Positions 2,783 through 33,875 are shown, counted from the first letter of the stretch. The stretch is DNA of 64,000 nt from an uncultured Verrucomicrobiota bacterium (GCA_937872095.1 CALMNW010000014.1:18512-82511); one strand, 5' to 3'. Numbers and translations: made by a program. The notes: a model not told the origin generated them from the sequence alone.

Positions 2783-5326
2783 ATGAAATCGTTGTCGTCT
2801 CTCGCCGTTTGCTTTCTGGTTTGGCTCGCTTCCGTTTCGGCGGGTTTCGCCGCCGCAGAACCCGCAGCCGCCCTCGTCTATTTTTCCCCGTATCCGGCCG
2901 TCCCCGAACAGGTCCGCACCAACCGCGACGTCGTCCGCTGGCGCCTGGGCGATCAACTCTTCGACGAAGGCCCCTGCCTCGAAGGCGTGCCGTTCCCCGT
3001 GCTCGTCGGCACCACCCAGCAGGTCGCCGCCGTCAGCCAGCTGCTCGCCACTTCCGTCCAAACCTTCGGCCCCATGCGCGGCTATGAACAGATCCTGCCC
3101 CAGTTCTGCGCTCCGGAGCCGGAGCCCGGGCTCGGAGCGATCATCGTCACCAACGGCTATCACGACGAAGAGGCCGTCGCTTCTTTGCTGACCCAATTCG
3201 AGACAAACTTTCCCGCCTTGGCTCAAAAGATCCAGATCGGGTGCACGACCATGGGCCGGCCCATCTGGGCGCTCAAGATCTCCGACAACGTCGAGACGGA
3301 AGAACCCGAACCGCGCGTCGTGATCGACGCCAACATCCACTCGCGCGAATTCGCCCCGCCGGAAGTGGCGCTCGACGTCATCTGGCAGCTTCTCTACGGC
3401 TACACCAACAATGCCACCTTCGCCGCCTGGGTCGACGGAATGGAGATCTACGTCATCCCCTGCCTCAATCCCGACGGCCGCTACTATTGCGACACCGTCA
3501 GCACCAGTTGGCGCAAAAACGGCCGGGACAACAACCGCAGCGGCACGTGGACCTATCCGACCGACGGCGTGGATCTCAACCGCAATTCGTCGTTCTATTG
3601 GGGCAGCGACGACGAGGGCTCCACGTCCTATGCCGCCGACGACACCTACCGCGGTCCCTACCCGGCCTCCGAACCGGAAATCCAGGCCTACGACGCCTTC
3701 CTGCAACGCGTCCGCCCCGGGTTCACCTTGACCTTGCACAGCTACGAAGGATCGATTTACAGCCCCTACGGCGACTACAACGTCGGCATGCCGTCCCCCG
3801 ATCCGTTCAAACCGCTCGGCACCAACATCGCCCGCGTCTGCACCAACGACGACAATTCCGCCTACGTCTACTACAGCGGCCCGGAATTCAGCTACACCGT
3901 CAACGGCGACCGCACCGATGCGAATTACGGTCTCTACGGCATCCAAGCCTATGGGGCGGAAATCGGCTCCGCATTCCAACCCACCTACACCACGACCCGC
4001 GACAAACTCGTGCCCGGCCTCCGGCGCGGCTGGCAGCAGTTCCTGGCCGCCGCCCACACGAACTGGCCCAAGGTCCGCGGGTGGTCCACCGATCCGCTCA
4101 CCGGCCAGCCCGCGCCCGTGCGCATCCATTCGCTCAATTTCACCAGCCGCCCCAACGACGAGCATTGGACCAGCCGCGACGACGGCTTCTTCGAATGCCC
4201 GCTGCCGACCGCCGGCACCTACCGCATCGTCTTCGCGCCGCTGGGCCAGGCTTCCCTCGCCGTCACCCAGACGCTCGCCATCTCCTCCACGGCCCGCTCG
4301 ACCAATCTGGCGTTCGGCACGGCGCCCGTCCTCGGCGCGCCCACGACCAACGGCCTGATGACCTGGAGCAACCAGAACGAAAACGGCACGCTGCTCCTGG
4401 AATTCGCGGATCAAGTGGAAGGTCCCTGGATCCCGCTCCTCGCCCAGGCCAGCACCGGCCGCACCGGGCAGGTTGCGCTGCCGACGAATTCCGCCACGCC
4501 GTTCATCCGCATCCACGCTTCGGCGCGGCTCTTCTCCGCCAACACCAATCTGGCTTGCGTTCCCGCCGGCCAATTCCGGATGGGCGCCGACGGTTCCGCC
4601 GACACCAACGAGGCGCCCGCCGCCGCGATCCACGTCGATGCCTTTGCCATCGACGCCCGCGAAGTCACCTACACCAACTGGGCGATGGTCCGCCGCTGGG
4701 CCCTGACCAACGGCTACCACTTCGCCACCGGCCAATGCGGCGTCGTGTCCGGCGGCGGGGCCGCCGCCTCGAGCAACCACCCCGTCGTCAAGGTGGGTTG
4801 GTACGATGCCGTCAAGTTCTGCAACGCCCGTTCGCAATACGAAGGCCTGATGCCCGCGTACTACACGACCGCCGGGCAAACGAACGTCTACAAGTCCAAC
4901 GTCGTGAGCCTGTCCTCCGCCTGCGTGAACTGGGACGCCAACGGCTACCGCCTGCCGACCGAAGCCGAATGGGAAAAGGCCGCGCGCGGCGGCGCCACCG
5001 GCCGGGAATACCCGTGGGGCGATTCCATCGCCGCCAGCAACGCGCTCTATGCTTCCGTCGGCACGTCCAACGTGGCCTCTTATGCCGCCAACGGCTATGG
5101 CCTGCGCGATGCCGCCGGCAACGCCGCCGAATGGTGCTGGGACTGGTCCGGCTCCTATGCCGACCGGACCGATGCCAATCCAACCGGCCCGGCCACCGGC
5201 ACCCTCCGCGTCGTCCGCGGCGGCTCGTGGAGCAACGCCGCCGCCGGCCTGCGCTGCGCCGCGCGCTCGTCCCTCGCCCCCGCCGCCAGCAACACCGTCG
5301 TCGGCCTCCGCTGCGTCCGGCGGTAA
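2783..5326 (+). CDS. Secreted M14 zinc carboxypeptidase fused to a C-terminal formylglycine-generating-enzyme (FGE/SUMF1-like) domain
   Basis: Signal peptide 'MKSLSSLAVCFLVWLASVSAGFAAA'. M14 motifs 'IDANIHSREFAPPE', 'LNRNS', 'TLHSYEG', 'AYGAEIG'. FGE-type 'GYRLPTEAEWEKAARGG...YPWGD' and 'RVVRGGSWSN'. Confidence 0.8.
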   Translation: MKSLSSLAVCFLVWLASVSAGFAAAEPAAALVYFSPYPAVPEQVRTNRDVVRWRLGDQLFDEGPCLEGVPFPVLVGTTQQVAAVSQLLATSVQTFGPMRGYEQILPQFCAPEPEPGLGAIIVTNGYHDEEAVASLLTQFETNFPALAQKIQIGCTTMGRPIWALKISDNVETEEPEPRVVIDANIHSREFAPPEVALDVIWQLLYGYTNNATFAAWVDGMEIYVIPCLNPDGRYYCDTVSTSWRKNGRDNNRSGTWTYPTDGVDLNRNSSFYWGSDDEGSTSYAADDTYRGPYPASEPEIQAYDAFLQRVRPGFTLTLHSYEGSIYSPYGDYNVGMPSPDPFKPLGTNIARVCTNDDNSAYVYYSGPEFSYTVNGDRTDANYGLYGIQAYGAEIGSAFQPTYTTTRDKLVPGLRRGWQQFLAAAHTNWPKVRGWSTDPLTGQPAPVRIHSLNFTSRPNDEHWTSRDDGFFECPLPTAGTYRIVFAPLGQASLAVTQTLAISSTARSTNLAFGTAPVLGAPTTNGLMTWSNQNENGTLLLEFADQVEGPWIPLLAQASTGRTGQVALPTNSATPFIRIHASARLFSANTNLACVPAGQFRMGADGSADTNEAPAAAIHVDAFAIDAREVTYTNWAMVRRWALTNGYHFATGQCGVVSGGGAAASSNHPVVKVGWYDAVKFCNARSQYEGLMPAYYTTAGQTNVYKSNVVSLSSACVNWDANGYRLPTEAEWEKAARGGATGREYPWGDSIAASNALYASVGTSNVASYAANGYGLRDAAGNAAEWCWDWSGSYADRTDANPTGPATGTLRVVRGGSWSNAAAGLRCAARSSLAPAASNTVVGLRCVRR

Positions 5327-5416
5327 GGACCCGTTCCGAAACCGGATCGTCTGAAGATCCGGCGATGACCGGACTGGAGCGTCTCCCGGTGCGCCACGCC
5401 GGATCAGCCCCATGCA

Positions 5417-5449
5417 ATGAAAACGCCGCGCCCCTTTCGGGGCGCGGCG
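5417..5449 (-). terminator. Rho-independent terminator for the S8 protease gene
   Basis: 11-bp GC stem 'cgccgcgcccc'/'ggggcgcggcg' with loop 'tttc'. A T-run follows on the minus strand (plus-strand aaaa at 5420-5423). Confidence 0.65.
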
Positions 5450-5468
5450 CGCGCGGCGACCGCTCGGT

Positions 5469-8400
5469 CTAGGGTGCGAGCAGGCGATAGTACCGCTTCA
5501 CGTCGACGTTGTTGGTGTCCGTCAAGGTGAGATTGCCGCCATCGCCGATGCCGCTGTCCACCTCGGTCCACGTCACCGGATCCGCCAGGAGGTCGAGGCT
5601 GAATTCCAGGCGGTATTCCTGGCCGTTCACCGTCGGGAAGGTGGCGGAAGCCGGCGCGCCGCCGCTCACGTCGAACGTCCGGACCACCGGCAAGGGATAG
5701 ACGGTTATGCCCACGGCCTCCCCGTCGCTACCGTCCTTGTCGGTGGCGTAGAAGGTAACGCTGTACTCGCCCGTCGGCGCCGCGGCCGTCCACAGGAACG
5801 TGCCCAGTTCGTTCGTCGGATAGAACGCCGCGCCGGCCGGCAGATTGCTCGCCGTCAGGGTCACCGGATCGGCTTCCGTCGGCGTGGCCGACACCTCGAA
5901 CTGCAGATCGTGTCCCACGAACGTTTCCTGGCCGCCGATCGCGTTCAGCACCGGGGGCGTGCCGCCGGCGGCCGCCGTCGTCACGTTCGTCGTCTCCGAA
6001 TACGGGCTGTTGGACACGGCGTTGTAGGCTTTCGCGCGGTAGTAGTACGTCGCGCCTTCCGTCAGGCCGGTCACGACCGCCGTCGTCACGTCGCCCACGT
6101 CGAGGTTCTCGTAGCCCGGAACGTAGGCAGGAACGCCACCGCTCGTACCCCAACCCATCACGACCAGATTCGACACCCCCACACCGACTCCGGAAAGCGC
6201 ATCCAGCGACTGCCACCGAATGCGAGTCTGGGCATTGCCAAGATTGGCCGTATTGGTCAAAGTCGGGATCGTGCAGAACGTGCTGCCAAGGAAGGGATTT
6301 ACGACGCCGATGACCGTCCAGGACCCGCCATTGTCTTCCGAAATGGACAGGGTAATGTTCGAATGCGTCGTTCCGCCATAGGTGCGTGCGCGGAAATCAA
6401 CGGTCAGATTGGTAAATCCAACGGTGGAAAACGCCGGCGAGACGATTTCGGCCGCTGCATTGGTCATCTGGACGTAGGTAGTCCCGCCCAAGGCGACACC
6501 GGACCAATCCCCTGTGATCAGCGCGGGAGAAGTAGCGGCATTGCTGGCCAAGAGAAATTGTCCGCTCGCACCGCCACCGCTTGAGAACGTGTCGTTCGTG
6601 CCAACGTCCAAAATATAGCCGGTGGCGCCGGCGGAAGCCAGCCAGTTGGCGTTGAACTGTTCGGCCTGCACGCTGCTGGCCGCCTGGATGACCGGCGCCG
6701 CCAATTCCGCCGGGGCTTCGCCCACGGTGATGGCGATGGTCTCCTCGTCGGTCCCGTCCTTGTCCGTCGCGTAGAACGTCACGCTGTATACGCCGGTCGG
6801 CGTCGCGCCGAGCCACTCGAAGGTGCCCGCCTCGTTGGTCGGATAGAACGCGGAGCCCGCCGGCAGGTTGCTCGCGGTCAGCGTCGCCGCGTCGCCGTCC
6901 GTGGGCGTCGCGACGACCTCGAACAGGAGGTTGCTGCCCAGTTCGACGTACTGGTTGCCCACCGGATTCAGGATGGGCGGCGTCGGCAGGCCGGGACCCG
7001 AGCAGTCGCTCGTGTGGGTGCCCAACCCGTCGAAGGTGTCGACGGCGTAACCGTCCCATTCCGTCGCGGGATCGAAGGCGTCCACGGTGTTGGTGTCGCC
7101 CACCTTGATCGTGCTCTTGCGGCGCAGGGTATTGTCGGCGGTGGACGTCAGGTTGGTGCCCCATTCCGAACCCGGATCCGTGCCGACCACGCCGATGGAG
7201 TCCACCACCGGACCGTTCGTTCCCCCGCTTCGCAGGACCACGGCATCGTCGCCGTTGAAGGTCAAGACGGCGCTGGTCATGTCGGCCAGGGCCAGCAACG
7301 CGGCGTCCGCCGAACTGTTGGCCAGCACGAACACGTCCTGCGACGGAATCGTTCCGGTCAGGGGAATCGTATAGCCCACGCTGGTCGCTCCGTTCTGATA
7401 ACCCATAACGTAGTACTGGTCGGCCGTCAGGTCGATGGCTTCCGCCGTCGGGTTGTAGATTTCCAGCGCCTTGTTGTTGCCTGAACCTTCGACGTATTCC
7501 GAGACGAGCACGTGGCAGTTGGTGTCGACGAACGGCGTCGGCTGGACATCGATGGAGATCGTCTTCTCGGTCGTGCCGTCCTTGTCCTCGGCATAGAAGC
7601 TGACGTAGTAGGTCCCCGTGGGAGCGGGGCTGTCCCAGATGAAGGTGCCGGCGCTGCTGCCGACGCCGTTGGTGAGCGGGAACGTCGCGCCGGCCGGCAG
7701 GTTGCTGGCCGTCAGCGCGATCGGATCGCCGTCGTAGGGATCCGTCGCGACGACCGCGAAGCTCAGCAGGTTGCTTTCGACGATGCTCTGGTTGGGCAGG
7801 TAGCCGAAGACCGGCGGCTTGTTGCTGCCGCAGCACAGCGGTTCGGAAGCCGTCACCGAAATCGACCAGCCTTGCGCGATGCTGCCGGAATCCACCTCGA
7901 ACTGGTCGGCGCAATACAGAGACCACGTGCCGTTGGGATTGCCGCCGTTGAATTCGGACAACGAAACGGCATACGGCTCGGCGGGTCCGGGCGACGGCAG
8001 GGCCAAGGGATCGCCGCCGGGGAGATACGTGCCCGAAACCATCGGATCCGCGATGGACGCGCCAGCTTCGTCGTCGAACGTCAGCGTCACGCCGCTGACG
8101 GACGTTTCCCCGCCGGCCCCGCCCATCAGGCAGACCTTCTGACCGTCCGGGCTCACCAGCACGACGTCCACGTCGGAGGGATAGTCGTGCGCGAACCCGC
8201 GCAGAGTGGCCGTGACCTTGCTGATGGTGCCCGGCAGGTTCGAAATGGAGAGAGTGCTGGGATACGGCGAGGCGGCGGCGTAGTCCACCAGCGTGATGGC
8301 CGAGGCGTTCGTCCGGGATTGTCCGACGTCCGAGGTTCCGCCCAGGCCGAACTCGAAGAGGACCACGCCCAGATCGAGGCCGTTGTCGTCCAGCGTCAGC

Positions 8401-24920: not shown

Positions 24921-25139
24921 ATGATCGATGTTGTCTTTTTTGTAGCTGGCCCCGTTGGGGCCGGCCATGAAGAGAAAACACCGGCCTCAGCAAGGCCGGC
25001 TACAATGGAGCCGAACAGTCTGCCGCCCGCGGCGGCAGATAAGCCGCGATTCCCCTCGCCCCGAGGGCTTCGTTTTCTGTGATTGCCCCCGGGGCGGTCC
25101 CGCGCTATTTTTTCGGGACGTTTTGTCTATAGGAGCAAC

Positions 25140-27818
25140 ATGAGCAAATCCCTTTCGACCTTGAAGACCTTCGCGCACGCCGGCCAGACGGTGGCCTACC
25201 ACGATTTGGCGGCGCTGGAAGCCCTGCGCGGCGCGCCGCTGGCGCAACTGCCCTACGTGGTGCGGATCCTGCTGGAATCCGCCGTGCGCAACCAGGGCCA
25301 CCCGGCCTACCGCTGGGAGCACGTGGAGGCCCTCGCCCGCTGGCGGCCCGGCGCGGACGGCGCCGCGGAAATCCCCTACCTGCCCGCGCGCGTCCTGCTC
25401 CAGGACCTCACCGGCGTGCCGTGCGTCGTGGATTTGGCCATGCTGCGGTCGGAAGTCGTCCGCCGCGGGGGCGATCCGGGGCTGATCGAGCCGCTCGTGC
25501 CGGTGGACATGGTCGTGGACCATTCCGTGCAGATCGACTGCTCGGCGTCGTTCGACGCCCTGCTCAAGAACATGGAAATCGAGTTCGGCCGCAACCACGA
25601 GCGCTACGAGTTCCTGCGTTGGGGCCAGCAGACGTTCCACAAGCTGCGCATCGTGCCGCCCGGCGTCGGCATCTGCCACCAGGTCAACCTCGAGTTCCTC
25701 GCCGACGGCGTCCACGCGGAGCCGCAGGCCGACGGCACGGTCCTGGCCTATCCCGACACGCTGGTGGGCACGGATTCGCACACGACGATGGTCAACGGCC
25801 TGGGCGTGCTCGGCTGGGGCGTGGGCGGCATCGAAGCGGAAGCGGCGATGCTGGGCCAGCCCATCGCGCTGCTGACGCCCGTGGTGACGGGCGTGCGGCT
25901 CACGGGCGCGCTGCGCCCGGGCGTAACCGCCACGGATCTCGCCTTGGTCGTCACCCAGCTCCTGCGCAAGCACAACGTCGTGGGCCAGTTCGTCGAGTAT
26001 TTCGGCCCCGGCCTCGCCAGCCTCTCGCTGGCCGACCGCGCGGTGCTCGCCAACATGGCGCCCGAATACGGCGCGACGACCGGATTCTTTCCCATCGACG
26101 CCGAAACCGTCGCCTATCTGCGCATGACGGGCCGTTCGGCCGAGCATTGCGAGCTGGTGGAGCAGTACGCCCGCCGGCAAGGGCTCTTCCTCGAAAAGGG
26201 CGCGCCGGAACCGACCTATTCGCGCACGCTCGACCTGGATCTGTCCGGCGTGGTGTCGGCCATCGCCGGGCCCAAGAAGCCCCACGACCACCAGCCCGTC
26301 GGCGAGATCAAGCAGCGCTTCCTCGCCGCGCTGCCGGCGCCGCACGACCAAGGCGGCTTCGGCGTGGCCGCCGACCGCCTCGGCGCGAAGGCCCAGCTGC
26401 CCGACGGCTCGGAAATGCGCCACGGCTCCATCGCCATCGCGTCGATCACGTCCTGCACGAACACGTCGAACCCCGTCCTGCTGCTGGCGGCCGGCCTGAT
26501 CGCGAAGAAAGCCGTCGCCCGCGGCCTGAAGGTGCCGCCGTACGTGAAGACGTCGCTGATCCCCGGCTCGCGCGTGGTGACGGCCTATCTGACGAACAGC
26601 GGCCTGCTGGCCGAACTGGAGAAGCTCGGCTTCGGCGTGGCGGCCTACGGCTGCGGCACCTGCATCGGCAACAGCGGCCCCCTGCGCGAGGATATCGCCG
26701 CCGCCATCCGCGGGCAGGATCTCGTCGCCGCCGCGGTGCTCTCCGGCAACCGCAACTTCGAAGGCCGCGTGCATCCGCAGTGCAAGGCCAACTACCTGTG
26801 CTCGCCGCCGCTCGTCGTCGCCTTCGCCCTCGCCGGCCGCGTGGACGTGGATCTCGACGCCGAGCCCGTCGGCGCGGGCGCCGACGGCCAGCCCGTCTTC
26901 CTGCGCGATTTGTGGCCCTCCGCGGCCGAGATCGACGCCCTGCTTGCGCAGGCGAACGATCCGAAGCTCTACGCCGAGGCGTACCGCGACGTGAACCAGT
27001 ACACGCCCGAGTGGAACCAGATCGAAGTCACCGACAAGCCGACGTTCGACTGGCATCCGGACTCGACCTACGTCCGCGAGCCGCCGTTCCTGGCCGCCGC
27101 GAAGCCCTCGCCGGAAATTTCCGGCGCGCGCATCCTCGGCCTGTTCGGCGATTTCATCACCACCGACCACATTTCGCCCGCCGGCACCATCGCCAAGGAA
27201 TCGCCCGCGGCGCGCTATCTGGTCGAGCGCGGCATCGAGCCGAAGAACTTCAATTCCTACGGCTCGCGCCGCGGCAACCACGAAGTCATGATGCGCGGCA
27301 CTTTCGCCAACGTGCGCCTGCGCAACCGCCTGGCCTCCCGCGAAGGCGGCTGGACGAAGCTGCAGCCCACGGGCGAGGAAACGAGCATCTTCGACGCCGC
27401 GATGGCCTACCGGCAGGCCGGCACGCCCGCGATCGTCGTCGCCGGCAAGCTCTACGGCGCCGGCAGCTCGCGCGACTGGGCGGCGAAGGGCCCGATGCTT
27501 CTCGGCGTCCGCGCCGTGATCGCCGAAAGCTTCGAGCGCATCCACCGCTCCAACCTCGTCGAGATGGGCGTGATGCCCTTCGAGTTCGTCGATGGCCAGA
27601 CGGCGGATGCCCTGGGGCTGGACGGCACCGAGACGGTCTCCATCCGCGGTAGCGGCCCGCTGGCGCCGCGCGGTGCGCACGAGGTCGTCGCGACCAAGCC
27701 CGACGGCCGCGAGATCCGCTTCCGGGTCCGCAACCGCATCGACGCGCCCATCGAGATCGCCTACTACGAGGCCGGCGGCATCCTGCCCTACGTCCTGAAC
27801 AACCTGCTGGGCCGCTAA
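25140..27818 (+). CDS. acnA: Aconitate hydratase A
   Basis: 892 aa. 'LLQDLTGVPCVVDLAMLR', 'GTDSHTTMVNGLGVLGWGVGGIEAEA', 'ASITSCTNTSNP', 'GCGTCIGNSGPL', 'YGSRRGNHEVMMRGTFAN'. Confidence 0.95.
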   Translation: MSKSLSTLKTFAHAGQTVAYHDLAALEALRGAPLAQLPYVVRILLESAVRNQGHPAYRWEHVEALARWRPGADGAAEIPYLPARVLLQDLTGVPCVVDLAMLRSEVVRRGGDPGLIEPLVPVDMVVDHSVQIDCSASFDALLKNMEIEFGRNHERYEFLRWGQQTFHKLRIVPPGVGICHQVNLEFLADGVHAEPQADGTVLAYPDTLVGTDSHTTMVNGLGVLGWGVGGIEAEAAMLGQPIALLTPVVTGVRLTGALRPGVTATDLALVVTQLLRKHNVVGQFVEYFGPGLASLSLADRAVLANMAPEYGATTGFFPIDAETVAYLRMTGRSAEHCELVEQYARRQGLFLEKGAPEPTYSRTLDLDLSGVVSAIAGPKKPHDHQPVGEIKQRFLAALPAPHDQGGFGVAADRLGAKAQLPDGSEMRHGSIAIASITSCTNTSNPVLLLAAGLIAKKAVARGLKVPPYVKTSLIPGSRVVTAYLTNSGLLAELEKLGFGVAAYGCGTCIGNSGPLREDIAAAIRGQDLVAAAVLSGNRNFEGRVHPQCKANYLCSPPLVVAFALAGRVDVDLDAEPVGAGADGQPVFLRDLWPSAAEIDALLAQANDPKLYAEAYRDVNQYTPEWNQIEVTDKPTFDWHPDSTYVREPPFLAAAKPSPEISGARILGLFGDFITTDHISPAGTIAKESPAARYLVERGIEPKNFNSYGSRRGNHEVMMRGTFANVRLRNRLASREGGWTKLQPTGEETSIFDAAMAYRQAGTPAIVVAGKLYGAGSSRDWAAKGPMLLGVRAVIAESFERIHRSNLVEMGVMPFEFVDGQTADALGLDGTETVSIRGSGPLAPRGAHEVVATKPDGREIRFRVRNRIDAPIEIAYYEAGGILPYVLNNLLGR

Positions 27819-27858
27819 TTACGCTCCCCGCTTATTCCCCAAGCAATCGCTCTTCGCC

Positions 27859-27928
27859 GGGGACTGTTTTATAAAACGATCCCCATTTTGCCTTGTCGTT
27901 TTGGAGATTGTTTTATAAAACAGTCCCC
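27859..27928. promoter_or_regulatory. Twin 26-bp palindromic operator-like sites (core GTTTTATAAAAC) upstream of the ArsR-like gene
   Basis: Site 1 is 'ggggactgttttataaaacgatcccc' (27859-27884). Site 2 is 'ggagattgttttataaaacagtcccc' (27903-27928), nearly the reverse complement of site 1. Centres are 44 bp apart. RBS 'aaagagg' follows. Confidence 0.6.
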
Positions 27929-27947
27929 GAACGAAAGAGGAACGCAG

Positions 27948-28496
27948 ATGAGACAACTCCATCCCACTTTGTGGCGCACCTGCCGCACGTTGGCCAACCC
28001 CACGCGGCTACGCCTGCTTCAGCTTCTCCTGGAACGACCGGGTTCCAACGTCTCGCAACTGGCGGAAAGATTGGACCTCGGAATCTCCGCCGCCAGCCAA
28101 GAACTACGCCGCCTGCAATCGCGCGGCCTCATCAAGCGGACTATTCAAGGACCGTCCGTGATCTATCTGCCCGTGCCCGACCCGCAAGTCCCCTCGGCCG
28201 CCCCTCTTTTGAAAGCGCTGCAGGCCGCCTGGGAGGCCGATCGCAACGGATCCGAAGCCATCGCCCGGCTGGCCAAAGGCCTGGCTTGCGAGCGCCGCAT
28301 CTCGCTGGTTCGCGCGCTGGTTCCGCAACCGCAACCCAGCGATCAATGGGCCCATCTCGTTCGCACCCGCTCCGACAATCTGAAAAAGCACGTCCGGATC
28401 CTCCGCGAATCCGGCTGGGTGACGAAGATCGACAAGCGCTTCGCCCTCCTTCCGGCCGGCCACCCCGTTCAGGCCACCCTGCTCAAGCTGCTCTGA
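27948..28496 (+). CDS. ArsR-family transcriptional regulator with a second degenerate wHTH
   Basis: 'LANPTRLRLLQLLLERPGSNVSQLAERLDLGISAASQELRRLQSRGLIKR'. The second half 'ISLVRAL...NLKKHVRILRESGWVTK' is ArsR-like again. Confidence 0.75.
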   Translation: MRQLHPTLWRTCRTLANPTRLRLLQLLLERPGSNVSQLAERLDLGISAASQELRRLQSRGLIKRTIQGPSVIYLPVPDPQVPSAAPLLKALQAAWEADRNGSEAIARLAKGLACERRISLVRALVPQPQPSDQWAHLVRTRSDNLKKHVRILRESGWVTKIDKRFALLPAGHPVQATLLKLL

Positions 28497-28585
28497 TCCG
28501 CATCCTGCATCCCCCGAAAGTTCAGCATTGGTTTTCATTTCCTTTTCGGATAAGACATATCCCCCTCCATGCAAAAGGATCCGCC

Positions 28586-30214
28586 ATGAAATTCGACCGA
28601 CTCCGCGACAGCTATCTCGCCCGCCTGCAGGCCGCCGCGCCCGTCGCCCAGGGCAAATTCGTCGCCAAGGAAAACGCCCTGGCGCTCCTGCAGGCCGTGG
28701 TGCGCAGCGGCGACCGCGTGTGCATCGAGGGCGACAACCAGAAGCAGGCCGATTTCTTCGCGCGCGAGCTGGTCAAGCTGGACCCCGCGCAGGTCAACCA
28801 CCTGCACATGACGCAGTCCACGCTCGTGCTGAACGAGCATCTGGACCTGTTCCGGCTGGGCATCGCCGACCGCCTCGACTTCGCCTATTCCGGGCCGCAG
28901 TCGAAGGCGCTCTACCAGCTCGCCGCCGAAAAGAAGGTGCAGATCGGCGCCATCCACACCTATCTCGAGCTCTACGGGCGCTACTTCGTGGATCTCTATC
29001 CGCAGGTGGCCATCCTCGTGGCCGAGGCCTGCGACGAAGCGGGCAACGTCTACACCGGCAACAATACCGAGGACACCCCGCTCATCGCCGAAGCCACGCG
29101 CTTCAAGATGGGCGTCGTGATCGTGCAGGCGAAGAAGAAGCTGGCGCAACTGCCCCGCGTGGACGTGCCGGCCTCTTGGGTCGATTTCATCGTGGTGACG
29201 GACGAGGACTACCACCTCCAGCCGCTGTTCACGCGCGACCCGGGCAAGATCACCAACCAGCAGATCCTGATGGCGATGATGGCCCTGAAGGGCATCTATG
29301 CGCCCTACGGCGTGCAGGCGCTCAACCACGGCCTTGGCTACGCCACCGCCGCGATCGAGTTGCTGCTGCCGACCTACGGCGCGCAACTGGGCCTGAAGGG
29401 CAAGGTCGCCACGCGCTGGGTGCTGAATCCCCATCCCACGCTCATCCCGGCCATCGAAGCCGGCTTCGTCGAGCACGTCTACGCGTTCGGCGGCGAGCCG
29501 GGCATGGACGACTACGTGCAGGCGCGGCCCGACATCTTCGCCGTCGGCCCCGACGGCTCCATGCGCTCCAACCGCTGCTGCGCGCACATCGCCGGCCTTT
29601 ACGCCATCGACCTGTTCATCGGCGCGACGCTGCAGATCGACCGCTTCGGCAATTCCTCCACCGCCATCAAGGGCATGATCGCCGGCTTCGGCGGCGCGCC
29701 CAACCTCGGCGGCACCCCGCCCGGCCGCCGGCACAACTCGCCGGCCACGACCGCCGCCGGCGGGATGCGCGAGCAGGTCTTCCGCGGCCGCAAGCTGGTC
29801 GTCCAGCTCACGCCCACCCGCTCCGAGAAGAAGAACATCCCCGTGTTCGTCGAGGAGCTCGACGCCCAGCAGCTGCACAAGGACGGGATCTTCCCCGAGC
29901 CGCCGGTCATGATCGCGGGCGACCAGGTCACGCACGTCGTGACCGAAACCGGCATCGCCTATCTGGACAAGTGTCCCGACGGCGAGACGCGCCAGAAAGC
30001 CGTCGCGGCCGTCGCGGGCGACACGCCCGTGGGGCTGACGCTCGACGCCGCCGGGCGCGACGCGCTGCGCGCCGCCGGCCTCGTGAAGACCGTGGCCGAT
30101 CTCGGCATCGATCCGGCGGCGGCCACGACCGACCTCCTGCCGGCGCATTCGCTGCAGGACCTGGTGACGGCGTCCGGCGGGCTCTACCGGATTCCGGCCG
30201 GCTGCAAGGGGTAA
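28586..30214 (+). CDS. mdcA: Malonate decarboxylase alpha-subunit-like acyl transferase (MdcA family), orphan
   Basis: Strong recalled similarity to MdcA along its length: 'IEGDNQKQADF', 'GAIHTYLELYGRYFVDL', 'PRVDVPASWVDFIVV', 'PLFTRDPGKI', 'LNHGLGYATAAIELLLPTYGAQLGLKGK', 'LNPHPTLIPAIEAGFVE', 'GSMRSNR', 'GFGGAPNLG'. Confidence 0.85.
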   Translation: MKFDRLRDSYLARLQAAAPVAQGKFVAKENALALLQAVVRSGDRVCIEGDNQKQADFFARELVKLDPAQVNHLHMTQSTLVLNEHLDLFRLGIADRLDFAYSGPQSKALYQLAAEKKVQIGAIHTYLELYGRYFVDLYPQVAILVAEACDEAGNVYTGNNTEDTPLIAEATRFKMGVVIVQAKKKLAQLPRVDVPASWVDFIVVTDEDYHLQPLFTRDPGKITNQQILMAMMALKGIYAPYGVQALNHGLGYATAAIELLLPTYGAQLGLKGKVATRWVLNPHPTLIPAIEAGFVEHVYAFGGEPGMDDYVQARPDIFAVGPDGSMRSNRCCAHIAGLYAIDLFIGATLQIDRFGNSSTAIKGMIAGFGGAPNLGGTPPGRRHNSPATTAAGGMREQVFRGRKLVVQLTPTRSEKKNIPVFVEELDAQQLHKDGIFPEPPVMIAGDQVTHVVTETGIAYLDKCPDGETRQKAVAAVAGDTPVGLTLDAAGRDALRAAGLVKTVADLGIDPAAATTDLLPAHSLQDLVTASGGLYRIPAGCKG

Positions 30215-30223
30215 AGGCCGCAT

Positions 30224-31666
30224 ATGGTTTTCAGTTCAGCCACCTTCCTGTTCTACTTCCTGCCGGCGGTCCTGACGCTGTACTTCCTGACGCCGCCGCG
30301 ATTTCGCAATCTCTCCGCGCTGGTCGCCAGCCTGGTGTTCTTCGCGTGGGGCGCGCCGCGGTTCGTCTTCGTGCTGATCGCGTCCTGCTTCGTCGACTAC
30401 CACGCCAGCCGTTGGCTGCCGCCGGGCCGGCTGCCGGTGCGGCGGCGCAAGCTCCTGCTCGGACTGGGGCGCGCGCTGGATCTGGGCCTCTTGCTCTATT
30501 TCAAGTACGCCAACTTCTTCGTGGCGGAAATCCAGGCCATGCTCGGCCTGTTCGGGCGGGGGCCGTTCCCGTGGGCGGCCGTCGTGCTGCCCATCGGCAT
30601 CTCGTTCTTCACCTTCCAGAAGGTCAGCTATCTCGTCGACGTCTACCGCGGCACGGCGCAGGTGGCCGGCAGCGCGGGGCGGCATCTGCTCTACATCGCC
30701 CTCTTCCCGCAGCTCATCGCCGGCCCCATCGTGCGCTACCACGACGTGGCGCGGCAGATCGACCAGCGCTCCACGACCTCGGGCCTGTTCCTCGACGGCC
30801 TCTGGCGGTTCTCCGTCGGCCTCGCGAAAAAGGTGTTCCTGGCGAACACCTTCGCGCGGCTGGCCGACCTGGTCTTCGACACGCCGCCGTCGCTCATGAC
30901 CACGACGCAGGCCTGGGCCGGCGTGATCGCCTACACGTTCCAGCTCTACTACGATTTCGCGGGCTATTCGGACATGGCCATCGGCCTCGGCCGCATGCTG
31001 GGCTTCCATTTCCTCGAAAACTTCAATTTCCCCTACGCGTCCGCGGGCATCGGCGAATTCTGGCGGCGGTGGCACATTTCGCTCGGCCGGTTCATGATGG
31101 AATACCTCTACGTGCCGCTGGGCGGCAACCGCAAGGGCCATGGACGCACGGTCTTCAACCTGTGGCTGGTGTTCCTCGTGTCCGGCTTCTGGCACGGGGC
31201 GGCCTGGACGTTCGTCCTGTGGGGCATCTGGCACGGCACGCTGATCTCCCTCGAGAAAACGCTGGGGCCCGAGCGCATGAAGCGCATTCCGCGGCCGCTG
31301 GCGATCGCGGGCACCTTCTTCCTGGTGGCGCTGGGCTGGGTGCTGTTCCGCTCGGGCACGATCCACCGCGCCGGCGGCTTCTACCTGCTGCTGTTCAACC
31401 TGCTGCCCGACGGCGCCGGGCTGATGGCCTTCCCCGAAATCATGGCCGACCGCGCGCTCTGGCTGGCGGCCGCCATCGGCATTCCCTGCGCGTTCGCGCC
31501 GGCGTTCGGGCTGGACCGCTTCCTGCCCCGGGATCCGGCCGACCCCGACGCCGTGCCGCTCGTCCGGGTCGCCGGACGCTTCGCGCTGAGCGTCGTGATT
31601 CTCGTCGTCGTTTCGTGCGAACTGTGCGCCACCGGCTTCAACCCCTTCATCTACTTCCAATTCTAG
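30224..31666 (+). CDS. MBOAT-family membrane O-acyltransferase (AlgI/DltB/PatA-like)
   Basis: 'FFTFQKVSYLVDVYRG', 'FPQLIAGPIVRY', 'FWRRWHISLGRFMMEYLYVPLGGNR', 'SGFWHGAAWTF'. It lies 9 nt after mdcA. Confidence 0.9.
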   Translation: MVFSSATFLFYFLPAVLTLYFLTPPRFRNLSALVASLVFFAWGAPRFVFVLIASCFVDYHASRWLPPGRLPVRRRKLLLGLGRALDLGLLLYFKYANFFVAEIQAMLGLFGRGPFPWAAVVLPIGISFFTFQKVSYLVDVYRGTAQVAGSAGRHLLYIALFPQLIAGPIVRYHDVARQIDQRSTTSGLFLDGLWRFSVGLAKKVFLANTFARLADLVFDTPPSLMTTTQAWAGVIAYTFQLYYDFAGYSDMAIGLGRMLGFHFLENFNFPYASAGIGEFWRRWHISLGRFMMEYLYVPLGGNRKGHGRTVFNLWLVFLVSGFWHGAAWTFVLWGIWHGTLISLEKTLGPERMKRIPRPLAIAGTFFLVALGWVLFRSGTIHRAGGFYLLLFNLLPDGAGLMAFPEIMADRALWLAAAIGIPCAFAPAFGLDRFLPRDPADPDAVPLVRVAGRFALSVVILVVVSCELCATGFNPFIYFQF

Positions 31667-31668
31667 CC

Positions 31669-32958
31669 ATGACGACCACCCCCTCCATCCCGCGCCGCTG
31701 TTTCCAAGGTTTACTGGTCGCCCTGACGGCCGCGCTGCTGCTCTTCCCCTACGTCCAGCACGCGACACATTGGCCGGCGGACAAGCGCCTCGGCGGCTTC
31801 CGCCCCCGCATGGACACTTTCCCCGATCTGACGCGCACGACCTGGTTCGACGGCTCCTTCGCCGCGGCGGTCGATCTGTGGGCCCGGGAACACGTCGGCG
31901 TCCGCGGCTGGCTGGTCGCCCTCGATCGCCAGATCCGCTATACCTGCTTCGGCCAGGTCGAACCGTCGCCGCTGCGCAAGCGCGCGCTGGTGATCGGCAC
32001 GCCGCCGATCCTCTACGAAAACATCCTGCTCGTCGACGCCCTGCGCCCGCCCCAGATCAATCCCGAGAAAATGGATTTCTTCGCCGGCCGCCTCGCGCGG
32101 GTCCAGGAACTGCTGAAGCAGCAAGGCATTCCTTTCGTCGTCGTCCTCGCGCCCAACAAAGCCATCGTCTATCCCGAATCGCTTCCGGCCTGGGCGCGCG
32201 ACCGCGTGTCGGAAACCAACTCCGACTACCGGGCGTTCATCGCGGCGCTGGCGCAGCACGACGTGCCTTTCCTGGACACCTTGGCGCTGTTCCGCGAACT
32301 GCGGCCGCAATATCCCGACCTCGTCCCGCCGCAGGCCATCCACTGGGGCCATCAGGGCGCCTGGATCGCCTGGCAACGAACCATTCCGCTCATCAACCGC
32401 CAGGGCCTCCTGCCGGAAATCCCCGTGCCGGAAACCGAAGACGTGATCATGGACAAGCCGTCCAGCATGAATCAGGAACTCCTCGGCCAACTGAACATTT
32501 TCGCCGGCCCCCACTTCCGCACGATTCCGTCGGCCTATCCCGTCGCCGGTCCGCTGCCGGCCGGCACGGAGGAAACCCTCCGCGCCCTCGTCGTCGGCGA
32601 CAGCTTCGGGTTCATGTTCGTGGACGCGATGGCCCGCTCGCGGCTCTGCGCCGACGTCCATTTCTGGTTCTATCTTCGGAGCGCCAAGGGCGCGTCGCCG
32701 GCCTCCTTCGACAGCCGCGTGCACCGCGGCTTGCCGGCCGTCGACGGGCTGGGCGCTTTGCCCCGCAACGTCGAAAACGGCCGGCGCATGATGGAAGGCA
32801 AGAATCTCGTCGTGTTCGTCATCACGACCTTCAACATCGACAAGTTGAGCTGGGGGTTCGACCGCCTCGTCGAACAGCTGTACGGGGATCCGGAATACGC
32901 CGCGCCGGCGCCCCCCGCCGGCTTCGACGACGAAATCGAAGTCAATCTGGGCGATTAG
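31669..32958 (+). CDS. AlgJ/AlgX/DltD-like SGNH-type periplasmic acyltransferase partner (signal-anchored)
   Basis: N-terminal anchor 'GLLVALTAALLLF'. 'AIHWGHQGAW' (His motif, with no Asp at the usual DxHW position) and 'LVVGDSFGFMF' (GDS). It lies 2 nt after the MBOAT gene. Confidence 0.6.
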   Translation: MTTTPSIPRRCFQGLLVALTAALLLFPYVQHATHWPADKRLGGFRPRMDTFPDLTRTTWFDGSFAAAVDLWAREHVGVRGWLVALDRQIRYTCFGQVEPSPLRKRALVIGTPPILYENILLVDALRPPQINPEKMDFFAGRLARVQELLKQQGIPFVVVLAPNKAIVYPESLPAWARDRVSETNSDYRAFIAALAQHDVPFLDTLALFRELRPQYPDLVPPQAIHWGHQGAWIAWQRTIPLINRQGLLPEIPVPETEDVIMDKPSSMNQELLGQLNIFAGPHFRTIPSAYPVAGPLPAGTEETLRALVVGDSFGFMFVDAMARSRLCADVHFWFYLRSAKGASPASFDSRVHRGLPAVDGLGALPRNVENGRRMMEGKNLVVFVITTFNIDKLSWGFDRLVEQLYGDPEYAAPAPPAGFDDEIEVNLGD

Positions 32959-32961
32959 CGC

Positions 32962-32993
32962 GCCGCCCGTCCCGGCGGGCGGATTTCATTTTT
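32962..32993 (+). terminator. Putative terminator after the acyltransferase operon
   Basis: Stem 'ccgcccg'/'cgggcgg' followed by the T-rich 'atttcattttt'. Confidence 0.45.
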
Positions 32994-33074
32994 CCTCTAT
33001 TGCCGCTTGCAATCCGCCGGAAATCCTTTCATTTTCAAACTGCGGGAGCGCACCACCCCGGAAAGGAACGAAAA

Positions 33075-33467
33075 ATGAAAAGATTCCAGATCGCCAGAGG
33101 ACTTGTGGCCTTGGCTTGCCTAGTGGCCGCCATCGGCCTCGCCGGATGCGACGACAACAGTTTGTACGACGTCCCGGAAAACATTTCCGGCACGTGGTCC
33201 TGCACCTTTACCCGCGCCGGGGAAGCCGCGCTGAGCGAAACCTGGTCCATCAACCAAAGCGGCAGCACCGTGTCCGGTTCCTATACGTTCAAAGAGGAAA
33301 GCTACACGTTCTCCGGAACCTACGTCGACGGTCGATTGAGCGCCGTCGATTCGGACAACTGGACGCTCAGCCTGGAATTCGAAAAGGACGACAAAGGCAA
33401 CGGCACCATCGCCGGCAATTCGGGCGACGAGTCCTATCAGGTCTGGAACGCCGACCTCTGGCGCTGA
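33075..33467 (+). CDS. Small lipoprotein, paralogue A
   Basis: Lipobox 'IGLAGC'. 'GTWSCTFTRAG...INQSGSTVSGSYTFK..SYTFSGTY...AVDSDNWTLSLEF'. Roughly 60% identical by eye to 34076-34474. Confidence 0.6.
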   Translation: MKRFQIARGLVALACLVAAIGLAGCDDNSLYDVPENISGTWSCTFTRAGEAALSETWSINQSGSTVSGSYTFKEESYTFSGTYVDGRLSAVDSDNWTLSLEFEKDDKGNGTIAGNSGDESYQVWNADLWR

Positions 33468-33494
33468 CCGGCCCGGCCGGGCCGGCGCGCGGGA

Positions 33495-33875
33495 TCAATC
33501 GTAGTCGAGATCGACGTCGTAGTCGTCGAAATCGCCGAAATCGGCGGTCACCTTCAGGATCGCGAGCCGCCCCTGCAGCACGTCGACGTCGTCCGCCCAG
33601 TTCCGGTCGACGTCGTCGCCGTCCAGCACCACGCGGTGTTGCCCTGGATCGAGATCGTAGTACCGCTCGTCGCCGATGCCGACGCTGGCGACCTGCAGGC
33701 CGTCGAGATAGACCCGGATCCGATCCCCCGTGCGGTTGTCCACCACGATCGAGCCCTGGCCAGCCGGCACGTCGTGGTCGTAATCGTCGTCCTCGCAACC
33801 CGCGGTCCCGGTGGTGATCACCGCCGCCAGCGCCAAGACACCCAGCCCCTTCATCCAACCCGCGCGCTTTTTCAT
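33495..33875 (-). CDS. Acidic small lipoprotein
   Basis: 'MKKRAGWMKGLGVLALAAVITTGTAGC' lipobox. D/E-rich mature part ending 'FDDYDVDLDYD'. Confidence 0.55.
   Translation of the reverse strand: MKKRAGWMKGLGVLALAAVITTGTAGCEDDDYDHDVPAGQGSIVVDNRTGDRIRVYLDGLQVASVGIGDERYYDLDPGQHRVVLDGDDVDRNWADDVDVLQGRLAILKVTADFGDFDDYDVDLDYD

Follow-up and report, generated by a model that had tools for sequence, protein, structure and literature searches.

Localization of an MdcA homologue within a compact four-gene array

Canonical MdcA is an acetyl-S-ACP:malonate ACP transferase and the alpha subunit of malonate decarboxylase. In an uncultured Verrucomicrobiota bacterium, a homologue of this protein is encoded next to an MBOAT gene and an AlgX/AlgJ-like gene, which raises the question of whether MdcA serves the acyltransferase pair or merely shares a transcript with it. 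We interrogated a 64,000-nucleotide stretch of DNA (the window) together with the genome it comes from and related loci, and we favor, on balance, two self-sufficient modules that are joined on one transcript in this genus.

Profile matches confirm the four genes of the original prediction, all on the + strand and arranged head to tail: an ArsR-like gene (27948-28496), the MdcA homologue (28586-30214), the MBOAT gene (30224-31666), and the AlgX/AlgJ-like gene (31669-32958). The MdcA stop codon lies 9 nt from the MBOAT start and the MBOAT stop 2 nt from the AlgX-like start. A hairpin with an 8-bp GC-rich stem (7 G-C pairs), followed by a T-rich tail, is located on the + strand at 32963..32992, 5 nt past the AlgX-like stop. 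It is the top + strand terminator-like site in 27700-33600 and the sole strong one, and it likely marks the 3' end of the operon. The 9-nt gap between MdcA and MBOAT implies co-expression, and the arrangement suggests that all four genes are transcribed together, consistent with the tight operon that had been proposed.

The ArsR-like protein matches NF033788 at 66 bits (cut-off 55), HTH_20 (1e-12, residues 15-64), and HVO_A0261_N (residues 113-179), and is an ArsR/SmtB-like regulator with two winged-helix domains. The palindromic operators predicted to accompany it were also found, 5' of the gene. These are two candidate 26-nt palindromic boxes (27859-27884 and 27903-27928; together 27859..27928, without strand), forming a direct repeat of an inverted repeat with the core GTTTTATAAAAC and with centers 44 bp apart. 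The GTTTTATAAAAC 12-mer occurs within the 64-kb window only in these two copies, and the boxes are likely the operators of the ArsR-like regulator. They are kept 5' of the regulator gene in related loci, with two copies each in L004, L010, L045, and L063, two variant copies in L019, and one copy in L007/L008, and are conserved regardless of the presence of the MBOAT cassette. Orthologues of the regulator (49-68% identity) likewise lie 5' of MdcA in loci with and without MBOAT. An aconitase gene (25083..27818, + strand; PF00330 at 1.2e-152, PF00694) is a conserved neighbor 5' of the regulator-MdcA unit, found upstream of MdcA in L004-L008, L010, L019, L045, L063, G184, and others; we claim no functional link for it.

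The MBOAT protein matches PF03062 at 103.3 bits (cut-off 27), with the catalytic-His motif RRWHISL, including WHISL, and the FWHGAAW motif visible. It is of the AlgI/DltB/PatA type, and its best solved relative is DltB (PDB 6BUG, 3e-22). Its score against the DltB equivalog model TIGR04091 is 135.5 bits, below the cut-off of 375, and no carrier or ligase gene (DltA/DltC) is present in the operon. The genome encodes five MBOAT paralogues including this one, and one of the five has two AlgX-like genes 3' of it. The AlgX/AlgJ-like protein has an N-terminal hydrophobic anchor, matches PF16822 over residues 140-245 (45.2 bits, cut-off 26.5), and weakly matches AlgJ (PDB 4O8V) across the catalytic-His region. 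All nine aligned PVC copies keep the His of IHW and the Ser of GDSF, and all have Ala or Gly where the D-x-H motif calls for Asp.

The MdcA homologue is an orphan

The MdcA homologue matches PF16957 over its full length (765.7 bits, profile positions 3-541/546), finds P. aeruginosa MdcA (PDB 5VIT) by phmmer at E = 2e-177, and is ~55-57% identical to canonical MdcA from end to end. Its TIGR01110 score of 735.2 bits is under the equivalog cut-off of 789.15. This is shared by its relatives, as PVC orphans score 687-758 bits and canonical MdcA proteins 846-928 bits (cut-off 789), and the homologue falls in a PVC-specific orphan clade.

Using profile searches of the genome (3.33 Mb, 102 contigs, 93% complete), we found a single MdcA, no MdcC-type ACP, and no CitG/MdcB. 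MdcG gave no match either, with a model that is silent in control genomes too, and the MdcD and MdcE models gave only weak matches far under their cut-offs, similar to those in 12/14 control genomes. A tblastn search of the genome with a canonical Gluconacetobacter MdcC/D/E/G/B set returned nothing better than E = 0.001. With the six family models and the canonical protein set, no complete mdc cluster was found at another site in this genome; no mdc partner is found, and MdcA is truly an orphan, as originally proposed. Across the order, the MdcC-type ACP model (PF06857) matches nothing in any of 31 genomes, among them eight other genomes of the same genus. Genomes of Dialister (MadL-MadM-MdcA) and Bradyrhizobium, whose MdcA proteins are independent orphans, also have no MdcC-type ACP, and a canonical control genome has one.

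We also looked for other malonate metabolism. A MadL/MadM malonate carrier (tblastn) and an OadB-type decarboxylase are not found in the genome, and malonyl-CoA decarboxylase has no match with a model that is silent in every control genome and is thus uninformative. Since none of the three was found, a full malonate catabolic route is not evident, and we take the fate of malonyl-CoA to be entry into the general pool.

Most active-site residues are retained and carrier-contact residues are replaced

We aligned the MdcA homologue residue by residue to 5VIT, with residue numbering and roles following PMC5534430, and compared it within a 79-sequence alignment that includes 29 mdcCDE-linked MdcAs, 26 PVC orphans, and 9 Dialister orphans. 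Nine residues are proposed for malonate binding or oxyanions: N59, Y134, R228, N258, N292, F312, R341, Q345, and G381 (PMC5534430). The window protein retains eight of these (N59, Y134, R228, N258, N292, F312, R341, and G381). N59, Y134, N258, N292, R341, and G381 are invariant across the alignment, R228 is Lys in two sequences, and F312 is altered in four. The ninth, Gln345, is His in the window protein and in 24/26 PVC orphans vs Gln in 28/29 canonical enzymes. The substitution falls at a contact with malonate's distal carboxylate and could point to a different substrate.

On this reading, the orphan MdcA might transfer CoA to some carboxylate that is not malonate, with a pocket retuned by the Gln345-to-His substitution and a role tied to the aconitase or to the amidase of basal clade members. 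The near-uniform His345 of the PVC orphans fits this reading, as do the clade's position under the TIGR01110 equivalog cut-off, the adjacency of aconitase and MdcA across at least two genera, and CN_hydrolase-MdcA pairs, with stop and start codons that overlap, at seven loci and in G154, G205, and G106. However, Arg341, Asn292, and Phe312 are all retained, as are the residues of the narrow pocket that has been described for malonate, His can still hydrogen-bond a carboxylate, and the full-length identity to canonical MdcA is ~55-57%. We therefore consider a non-malonate substrate unlikely.

The surface that contacts MdcC is lost. An F424A mutation breaks the holoenzyme (PMC5534430). Position 424 is Phe in 29/29 mdcCDE-linked MdcAs, Arg or Val in 25/26 PVC orphans, and Val in 9/9 Dialister orphans. 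Position 466 is Glu in 28/29 canonical enzymes and varies among orphans. At position 490, 29/29 canonical enzymes have Tyr or Phe, whereas PVC orphans have Asp, Glu, Asn, or Ser. At these MdcC-contact sites the window protein carries Phe424 to Arg, Glu466 to Thr, and the aromatic 490 to Asp. Because the active site is kept and the carrier interface is lost, we infer that CoA would be exchanged between malonate and acetate as free thioesters.

A carrier unrelated to MdcC, unrecognized and encoded elsewhere, could in principle still present a protein-bound thiol to MdcA, given that canonical MdcA is an ACP transferase, that the genome is 93% complete, and that small carrier genes are easily missed. 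This is highly improbable, as PF06857 matches are nil in the 31 genomes of the order, neither CitG/MdcB nor MdcG (the latter with a model silent in controls) is found for prosthetic-group synthesis, the MdcC-contact sites carry other residues, and no small conserved ORF lies alongside MdcA across its varied contexts.

The linkage of MdcA to MBOAT is local

We read gene neighborhoods by tblastn with defined queries and from gene calls on record. Neighborhood clustering based on longest ORFs was dropped, since antisense shadow ORFs make it unreliable at 65% G+C. The MdcA-MBOAT-AlgX order is found at six genus-level loci and, between unrelated flanks, in a single rumen lineage of Kiritimatiellae, and the MdcA-adjacent MBOATs of both lineages cluster together in the tree, apart from other paralogues (support 83/78). 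Recurrence in a second genus and a joint MBOAT group go beyond what adjacency by chance would readily produce, and the linkage could have been selected for. In the rumen lineage, 255 nt separate MdcA from MBOAT, and a 64-codon ORF of doubtful standing lies in between. We rejected this ORF as a carrier, as it is proline/alanine-rich, has no family match on record, and is absent from the window; it looks like a gene remnant.

The original prediction had cast MdcA as the enzyme that makes or exchanges a cytoplasmic acyl donor, malonyl or some other acyl thioester, which the MBOAT would pass across the membrane to the AlgX-like protein, yielding a glycan that bears an unusual O-acyl group. The 9- and 2-nt gaps, the lack of a notable internal terminator-like site with a hairpin only at the end, the recurrence of an identical order in the six genus-level loci and the rumen contigs, and the single MBOAT group all speak for this, as does one clade member in which MdcA overlaps a WbsX glycosyltransferase gene within a glycan cluster. 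Against it, the adjacency is missing at 19/26 PVC-clade MdcA loci, in 10/15 further genomes of this family that carry MdcA, and in one of the two genomes of the rumen genus, and the genes of the rumen lineage are separated by the 255-nt gap and doubtful ORF. Relatives whose MdcA is 88-91% identical have the aconitase, regulator, operators, and MdcA, with all catalytic residues retained, and are missing the cassette; homology between cassette-bearing and cassette-free loci stops at the MdcA stop codon. From the MBOAT side, metagenomic loci of MBOAT homologues have an AlgX-like neighbor in 62/80 cases and MdcA in 0/80. The literature searched holds no paper joining malonate decarboxylase and MBOAT, and none on stand-alone MdcA was found. 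Moreover, acetyl-CoA and malonyl-CoA are already present in any fatty-acid-making cell, so that central metabolism supplies both and a dedicated supplier is unnecessary.

Together, these comparisons make donor supply by MdcA a distinctly unlikely explanation. The predicted conservation of the linkage stands for the genus and one rumen lineage and fails across most of the PVC clade and all 80 MBOAT loci, and the recruitment of MdcA as donor maker for the MBOAT is not borne out, as the linkage is largely not conserved and MdcAs of 88-91% identity do without the cassette. A narrower version, in which an ACP-independent MdcA of this genus and of one rumen Kiritimatiellae genus feeds a dedicated MBOAT/AlgX-like pair with a donor other than acetyl (malonyl-CoA derived from recycled or imported malonate, for example), and the cell surface carries an O-malonylated glycan under control of the ArsR-like repressor, is more doubtful still.

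The other contexts of PVC-clade MdcA include CN_hydrolase, WbsX glycosyltransferase, MtnA, and the aconitase-regulator pair alone, and one genome of the same genus has MdcA paired with MtnA instead of MBOAT. An amidase orthologous to the CN_hydrolase partner (64% identity) lies ~160 kb from the window MdcA on the same contig. Almost every relative has one part without the other, so that what joins them here is most likely gene arrangement at the genus level rather than a new donor pathway. On present evidence, the MdcA-MBOAT linkage is a local gene-order feature, and a donor-supplying role of MdcA for the MBOAT is unlikely.

A proposed model of two autonomous modules

The explanation that we consider probable is that this genus transcribes two self-sufficient modules together and that MdcA is an ACP-independent malonate:acetyl-CoA CoA-transferase. 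The first module would comprise the ArsR-like repressor, its twin palindromic operators, and an MdcA enzyme that no longer uses an acyl carrier protein, and would bring malonate into the malonyl-CoA pool, as salvage or detoxification. The second would be an ordinary MBOAT with a periplasmic AlgX/AlgJ-like transferase, which would take an acyl group (acetyl being the most likely) from a donor in the cytoplasm and attach it to a glycan outside the cytoplasm; this module is a presence/absence cassette between the MdcA stop codon and the conserved downstream genes. Co-transcription in the genus probably reflects gene order, not biochemical dependence. Gene content, orphan status, residue patterns, and the spread of the linkage are observed here, whereas the CoA-transferase activity of MdcA and the substrate it uses are predicted, as are the acyl group that is transferred and the glycan that receives it.

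Should members of the orphan clade prove to be free malonate CoA-transferases, genes could be assigned to EC 2.8.3.3 (malonate CoA-transferase), an entry listed without a KEGG function number (PMC8307300). Phe424, Glu466, and the aromatic 490 would then give a simple rule that separates ACP-dependent from ACP-independent MdcA homologues, two kinds to which annotation pipelines currently give similar names. The MBOAT linkage matters only if MdcA does supply the donor, in which case it would define the cytoplasmic donor step of bacterial glycan O-acylation.

Comparison with known systems

Similar to the AlgI-AlgJ/AlgX, PatA-PatB, and DltB-DltD pairs, the window encodes an MBOAT with a conserved His followed by a signal-anchored AlgX_N-type protein that has a conserved His and a GDS-type Ser. 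It differs from DltB-DltD in that its MBOAT is no DltB equivalog and DltA/DltC are absent, from alginate systems in that AlgF and the alginate genes are absent here, and from the AlgX/AlgJ triad in that PVC copies carry Ala/Gly for the D-x-H Asp.

The CN_hydrolase-MdcA unit of other Kiritimatiellae/Verrucomicrobiota belongs to the same orphan MdcA clade and, among the contexts of that clade, is the most frequent and the most basal in the tree, whereas the window MdcA has a regulator 5' and the MBOAT cassette 3'. Canonical MdcA/MadA (P. aeruginosa 5VIT/5VJ1, PMC5534430) resembles the window protein in full-length homology, in the malonate and oxyanion residues except Gln345, and in the two-domain family I/II CoA-transferase fold expected for it. 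In contrast, no MdcC, D, E, B, or G is found for the window protein in the genome or the order, Gln345 is His, the MdcC-contact residues are replaced, the TIGR01110 score is below the cut-off, and the gene is under an ArsR-like regulator in place of an MdcR-type one.

The reaction expected if MdcA works on free CoA esters is that of EC 2.8.3.3. This activity has been known for decades from malonate-fermenting and Pseudomonas extracts. The setting of the window genome differs in that no malonate carrier or malonyl-CoA decarboxylase is detected in it, while the Dialister orphan MdcA is encoded directly 3' of madL-madM, without decarboxylase subunits, and fits the role of a malonate CoA-transferase.

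Organization of the operon

The four genes of the unit lie on the plus strand, and their families were assigned by profile matches. An ArsR/SmtB-like regulator gene (27948-28496; NF033788, 66 bits, cut-off 55) is followed by an MdcA homologue at 28586-30214 (PF16957 end to end, 765.7 bits, cut-off 25.4), an MBOAT gene at 30224-31666 (PF03062, 103.3 bits, cut-off 27) and an AlgX/AlgJ-like gene at 31669-32958 (PF16822, 45.2 bits, cut-off 26.5). Gaps of 9 nt and 2 nt separate MdcA from MBOAT and MBOAT from the AlgX-like gene, respectively. Two palindromic boxes of 26 nt each (27859-27884 and 27903-27928) lie 5' of the regulator gene, with an aconitase gene (25083-27818) further upstream. The top-scoring plus-strand terminator-like hairpin of the region begins 5 nt past the AlgX-like stop codon, and the genes downstream of the unit are convergent. 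Genes, order, spacing and families all agree with the original prediction. Elsewhere in the window, the G+C content of the segment 18000-22000 is 0.52-0.53, compared with about 0.65 for the rest. We consider it probable that this operon joins two autonomous modules, of which the first would be a regulated, carrier-independent MdcA-type CoA-transferase and the second a standard glycan O-acylation pair formed by the MBOAT and AlgX-like proteins.

The MdcA homologue lacks its decarboxylase partners

The genome that contains the window (3.33 Mb in 102 contigs, 93% complete, Verrucomicrobiota/Kiritimatiellae-type) has one MdcA copy by genome-wide search, and the nearest records to it are uncultured Verrucomicrobia MAGs at 96% identity. 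We found neither an MdcC-type carrier nor CitG/MdcB in this 93%-complete genome. The MdcG model gave no match there and was silent in all control genomes too, while the MdcD and MdcE models gave only weak matches, far under their cut-offs and similar to those in 12 of 14 control genomes. A tblastn search of the genome with the canonical MdcC/D/E/G/B set of Gluconacetobacter also returned no meaningful match. Because the carrier family was found in none of the 31 genomes of the order that were searched, including eight of the same genus, an assembly gap does not account for the missing carrier. The genome-wide check for mdc partners that the original prediction called for found none in this 93%-complete genome.

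In a tree of 79 MdcA sequences drawn from the genome collection, the window's MdcA falls within a 26-sequence clade made up almost entirely of PVC bacteria, and no member of this clade has mdcC, mdcD or mdcE nearby. The other half of the tree holds the mdcCDE-linked (canonical) enzymes of Proteobacteria, Actinomycetota, Bacillota and some Verrucomicrobiota or Lentisphaerota. Residues described for the P. aeruginosa holoenzyme (PMC5534430) were mapped by alignment to 5VIT and tabulated across these groups. The window's MdcA retains N59, Y134, R228, N258, N292, F312, R341 and G381; N59, Y134, N258, N292, R341 and G381 are invariant across the alignment, R228 is replaced by Lys in two of the 79 sequences, and F312 differs in four. 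The sole exception among the active-site residues is position 345, which is His in 24/26 clade members versus Gln in 28/29 canonical enzymes, and Gln345 hydrogen-bonds the distal carboxylate of malonate (PMC5534430). That the orphan enzyme acts on a carboxylate other than malonate has, in our view, a small but appreciable chance; malonate is the most likely acid substrate, corresponding to malonate CoA-transferase (EC 2.8.3.3), an activity that a review gives without a KEGG function number (PMC8307300).

The carrier contacts differ between the two groups. Phe424, whose replacement by Ala abolishes holoenzyme formation (PMC5534430), is Phe in all 29 mdcCDE-linked sequences versus Arg or Val in 25/26 PVC orphans and Val in 9/9 Dialister orphans. 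Likewise, Glu466 is kept in 28/29 mdcCDE-linked enzymes and is variable in orphans, and position 490 is Tyr or Phe in 29/29 versus Asp, Glu, Asn or Ser in PVC orphans and mostly Lys in Dialister. PVC orphans score 687-758 bits against the NCBIfam equivalog model (cut-off 789), compared with 846-928 for canonical sequences. This clade, together with its residue signature, represents a new variant within a known enzyme family, and we found no description of either in the literature searched. The simplest reading is that the orphan MdcA has retained thioester-exchange chemistry and dropped the protein carrier, so that it would act as a CoA-transferase on free CoA esters. We regard it as very improbable that the enzyme instead works with an unrecognised carrier protein.

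An MdcC-type carrier is also missing genome-wide from Dialister and Bradyrhizobium (none found in the two genomes searched of each genus), and it is present in a canonical control genome. In L040, a Dialister locus (4260-7587), and in eight more loci of this genus, MdcA lies immediately 3' of the madL-madM malonate carrier genes, with no mdcC, mdcD or mdcE nearby; gut Veillonellaceae may in this way activate malonate without a protein carrier. Bradyrhizobium (L064, L077, L079) and Steroidobacteraceae (L066, L078) also have MdcA homologues that lack neighbouring mdcC/D/E genes, and these form a clade of their own.

Linkage of MdcA to the MBOAT pair

The order aconitase-(regulator)-MdcA-MBOAT-AlgX is shared by the window and five genus-level loci (L004, L005, L006, L045, L063) whose MdcAs are 90-96% identical to the window's, although the regulator has no match in L005. 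A goat-rumen Kiritimatiellae lineage, from a different genus of the same family, also has the MdcA-MBOAT-AlgX order (76%, 58% and 29% identity, respectively), with flanks unrelated to the window's and a 255-nt spacer holding a doubtful 64-codon ORF. This ORF (L084:7670-7864), called between MdcA and MBOAT, begins, judged by eye, like the N-terminus of a GNAT acetyltransferase, is Pro/Ala-rich in the rest, and may be a gene remnant.

The original prediction was that MdcA had been recruited to supply the acyl donor to MBOAT. Its best evidence is the MBOAT tree, in which the MdcA-adjacent copies of both genera cluster (support 83/78) beside another group of paralogues that these genomes encode; the arrangement, as read from this tree, may therefore be old. 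Against this, three loci whose MdcAs are 88-91% identical to the window's (L008, L010, L019) retain aconitase, regulator and MdcA, and both the MBOAT and the AlgX-like gene are missing at that site. When loci that have the pair are compared with loci that lack it, nucleotide homology ends at the MdcA stop codon, and the small gene downstream in L010 is the same as the window's. The genomes lacking the pair at MdcA have no orthologue of it elsewhere, their best MBOATs being other paralogue types, and MdcA is therefore kept under purifying selection without it. Across the family sample, MdcA occurs in 15 of 20 other genomes and adjoins MBOAT in five of these 15; in the rumen genus, one of two sampled genomes lacks MBOAT after MdcA.

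Clade MdcAs also pair with other genes. A nitrilase-superfamily amidase overlaps MdcA stop to start in seven loci, and the pairing recurs in three further genomes of the phylum sample; it is the most basal context in the MdcA tree. This amidase matches PF00795 and no NCBIfam equivalog. One same-genus genome has MdcA followed by MtnA at a different location, and some other clade loci have unrelated neighbours.

The amidase-MdcA loci, from PVC bacteria, are L097 (7033-9629), L099 (7036-9632), L009, L018, L022, L025, L026 and L125-L127, with genes that overlap or abut. An orthologous amidase (64% identity) lies about 160 kb away on the window's own contig. In L092 (6845-9629), an orphan MdcA gene that is 81% identical to the window's shares 14 nt at its start with a WbsX-family glycosyltransferase gene, and both belong to a gene cluster with epimerase, methyltransferase and GT2 genes.

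Among 80 metagenomic loci that carry MBOAT homologues of 41-61% identity, 62 have an AlgX-like gene next to the MBOAT and none has an MdcA. The window's genome has five MBOAT paralogues; the one most similar to the window's copy, at 55% identity, has two AlgX-like genes after it and no MdcA. This paralogue (G000:C7:263-3903; L112, L117, L118) begins 263 nt from a contig end, with the AlgX-like genes in tandem, and in L063 its orthologue immediately precedes the aconitase gene but is encoded on the other strand. The linkage is thus conserved locally, in genus-level loci and one rumen lineage, and does not extend to most clade members or to the 80 MBOAT loci. With MdcA persisting without the pair and the pair without MdcA, we consider recruitment of MdcA as donor enzyme improbable and favor two autonomous modules.

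The regulator and its probable operator boxes

Ahead of the regulator gene, L004, L010, L045 and L063 each have two boxes with the same core, spaced 42-46 bp; L019 has two variant copies there, and L007 and L008 have one each. In L006, a run of N (5260-5385) takes up the sequence 5' of the regulator gene, placing this locus outside the comparison. The twin boxes are a phylogenetic footprint. Since they are kept with or without the MBOAT pair, the conserved unit is operator-regulator-MdcA, with the MBOAT pair as an appendage.

Comparison with known O-acylation systems

The MBOAT carries the conserved His motif, and its AlgX-like partner has an N-terminal anchor, a catalytic-type His (IHW, with its surrounding residues at 32350-32380) and Ser (GDSF). 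The acyl group transferred by this pair is presumably acetyl, by analogy with AlgI/AlgJ/AlgX and PatA/PatB. DltB is the nearest solved structure to the window's MBOAT, yet the protein falls far under the DltB equivalog cut-off. Unlike AlgJ and AlgX, all nine aligned PVC AlgX-like proteins have Ala or Gly in place of the Asp of the D-x-H motif; they retain its His as well as the GDS-type Ser.
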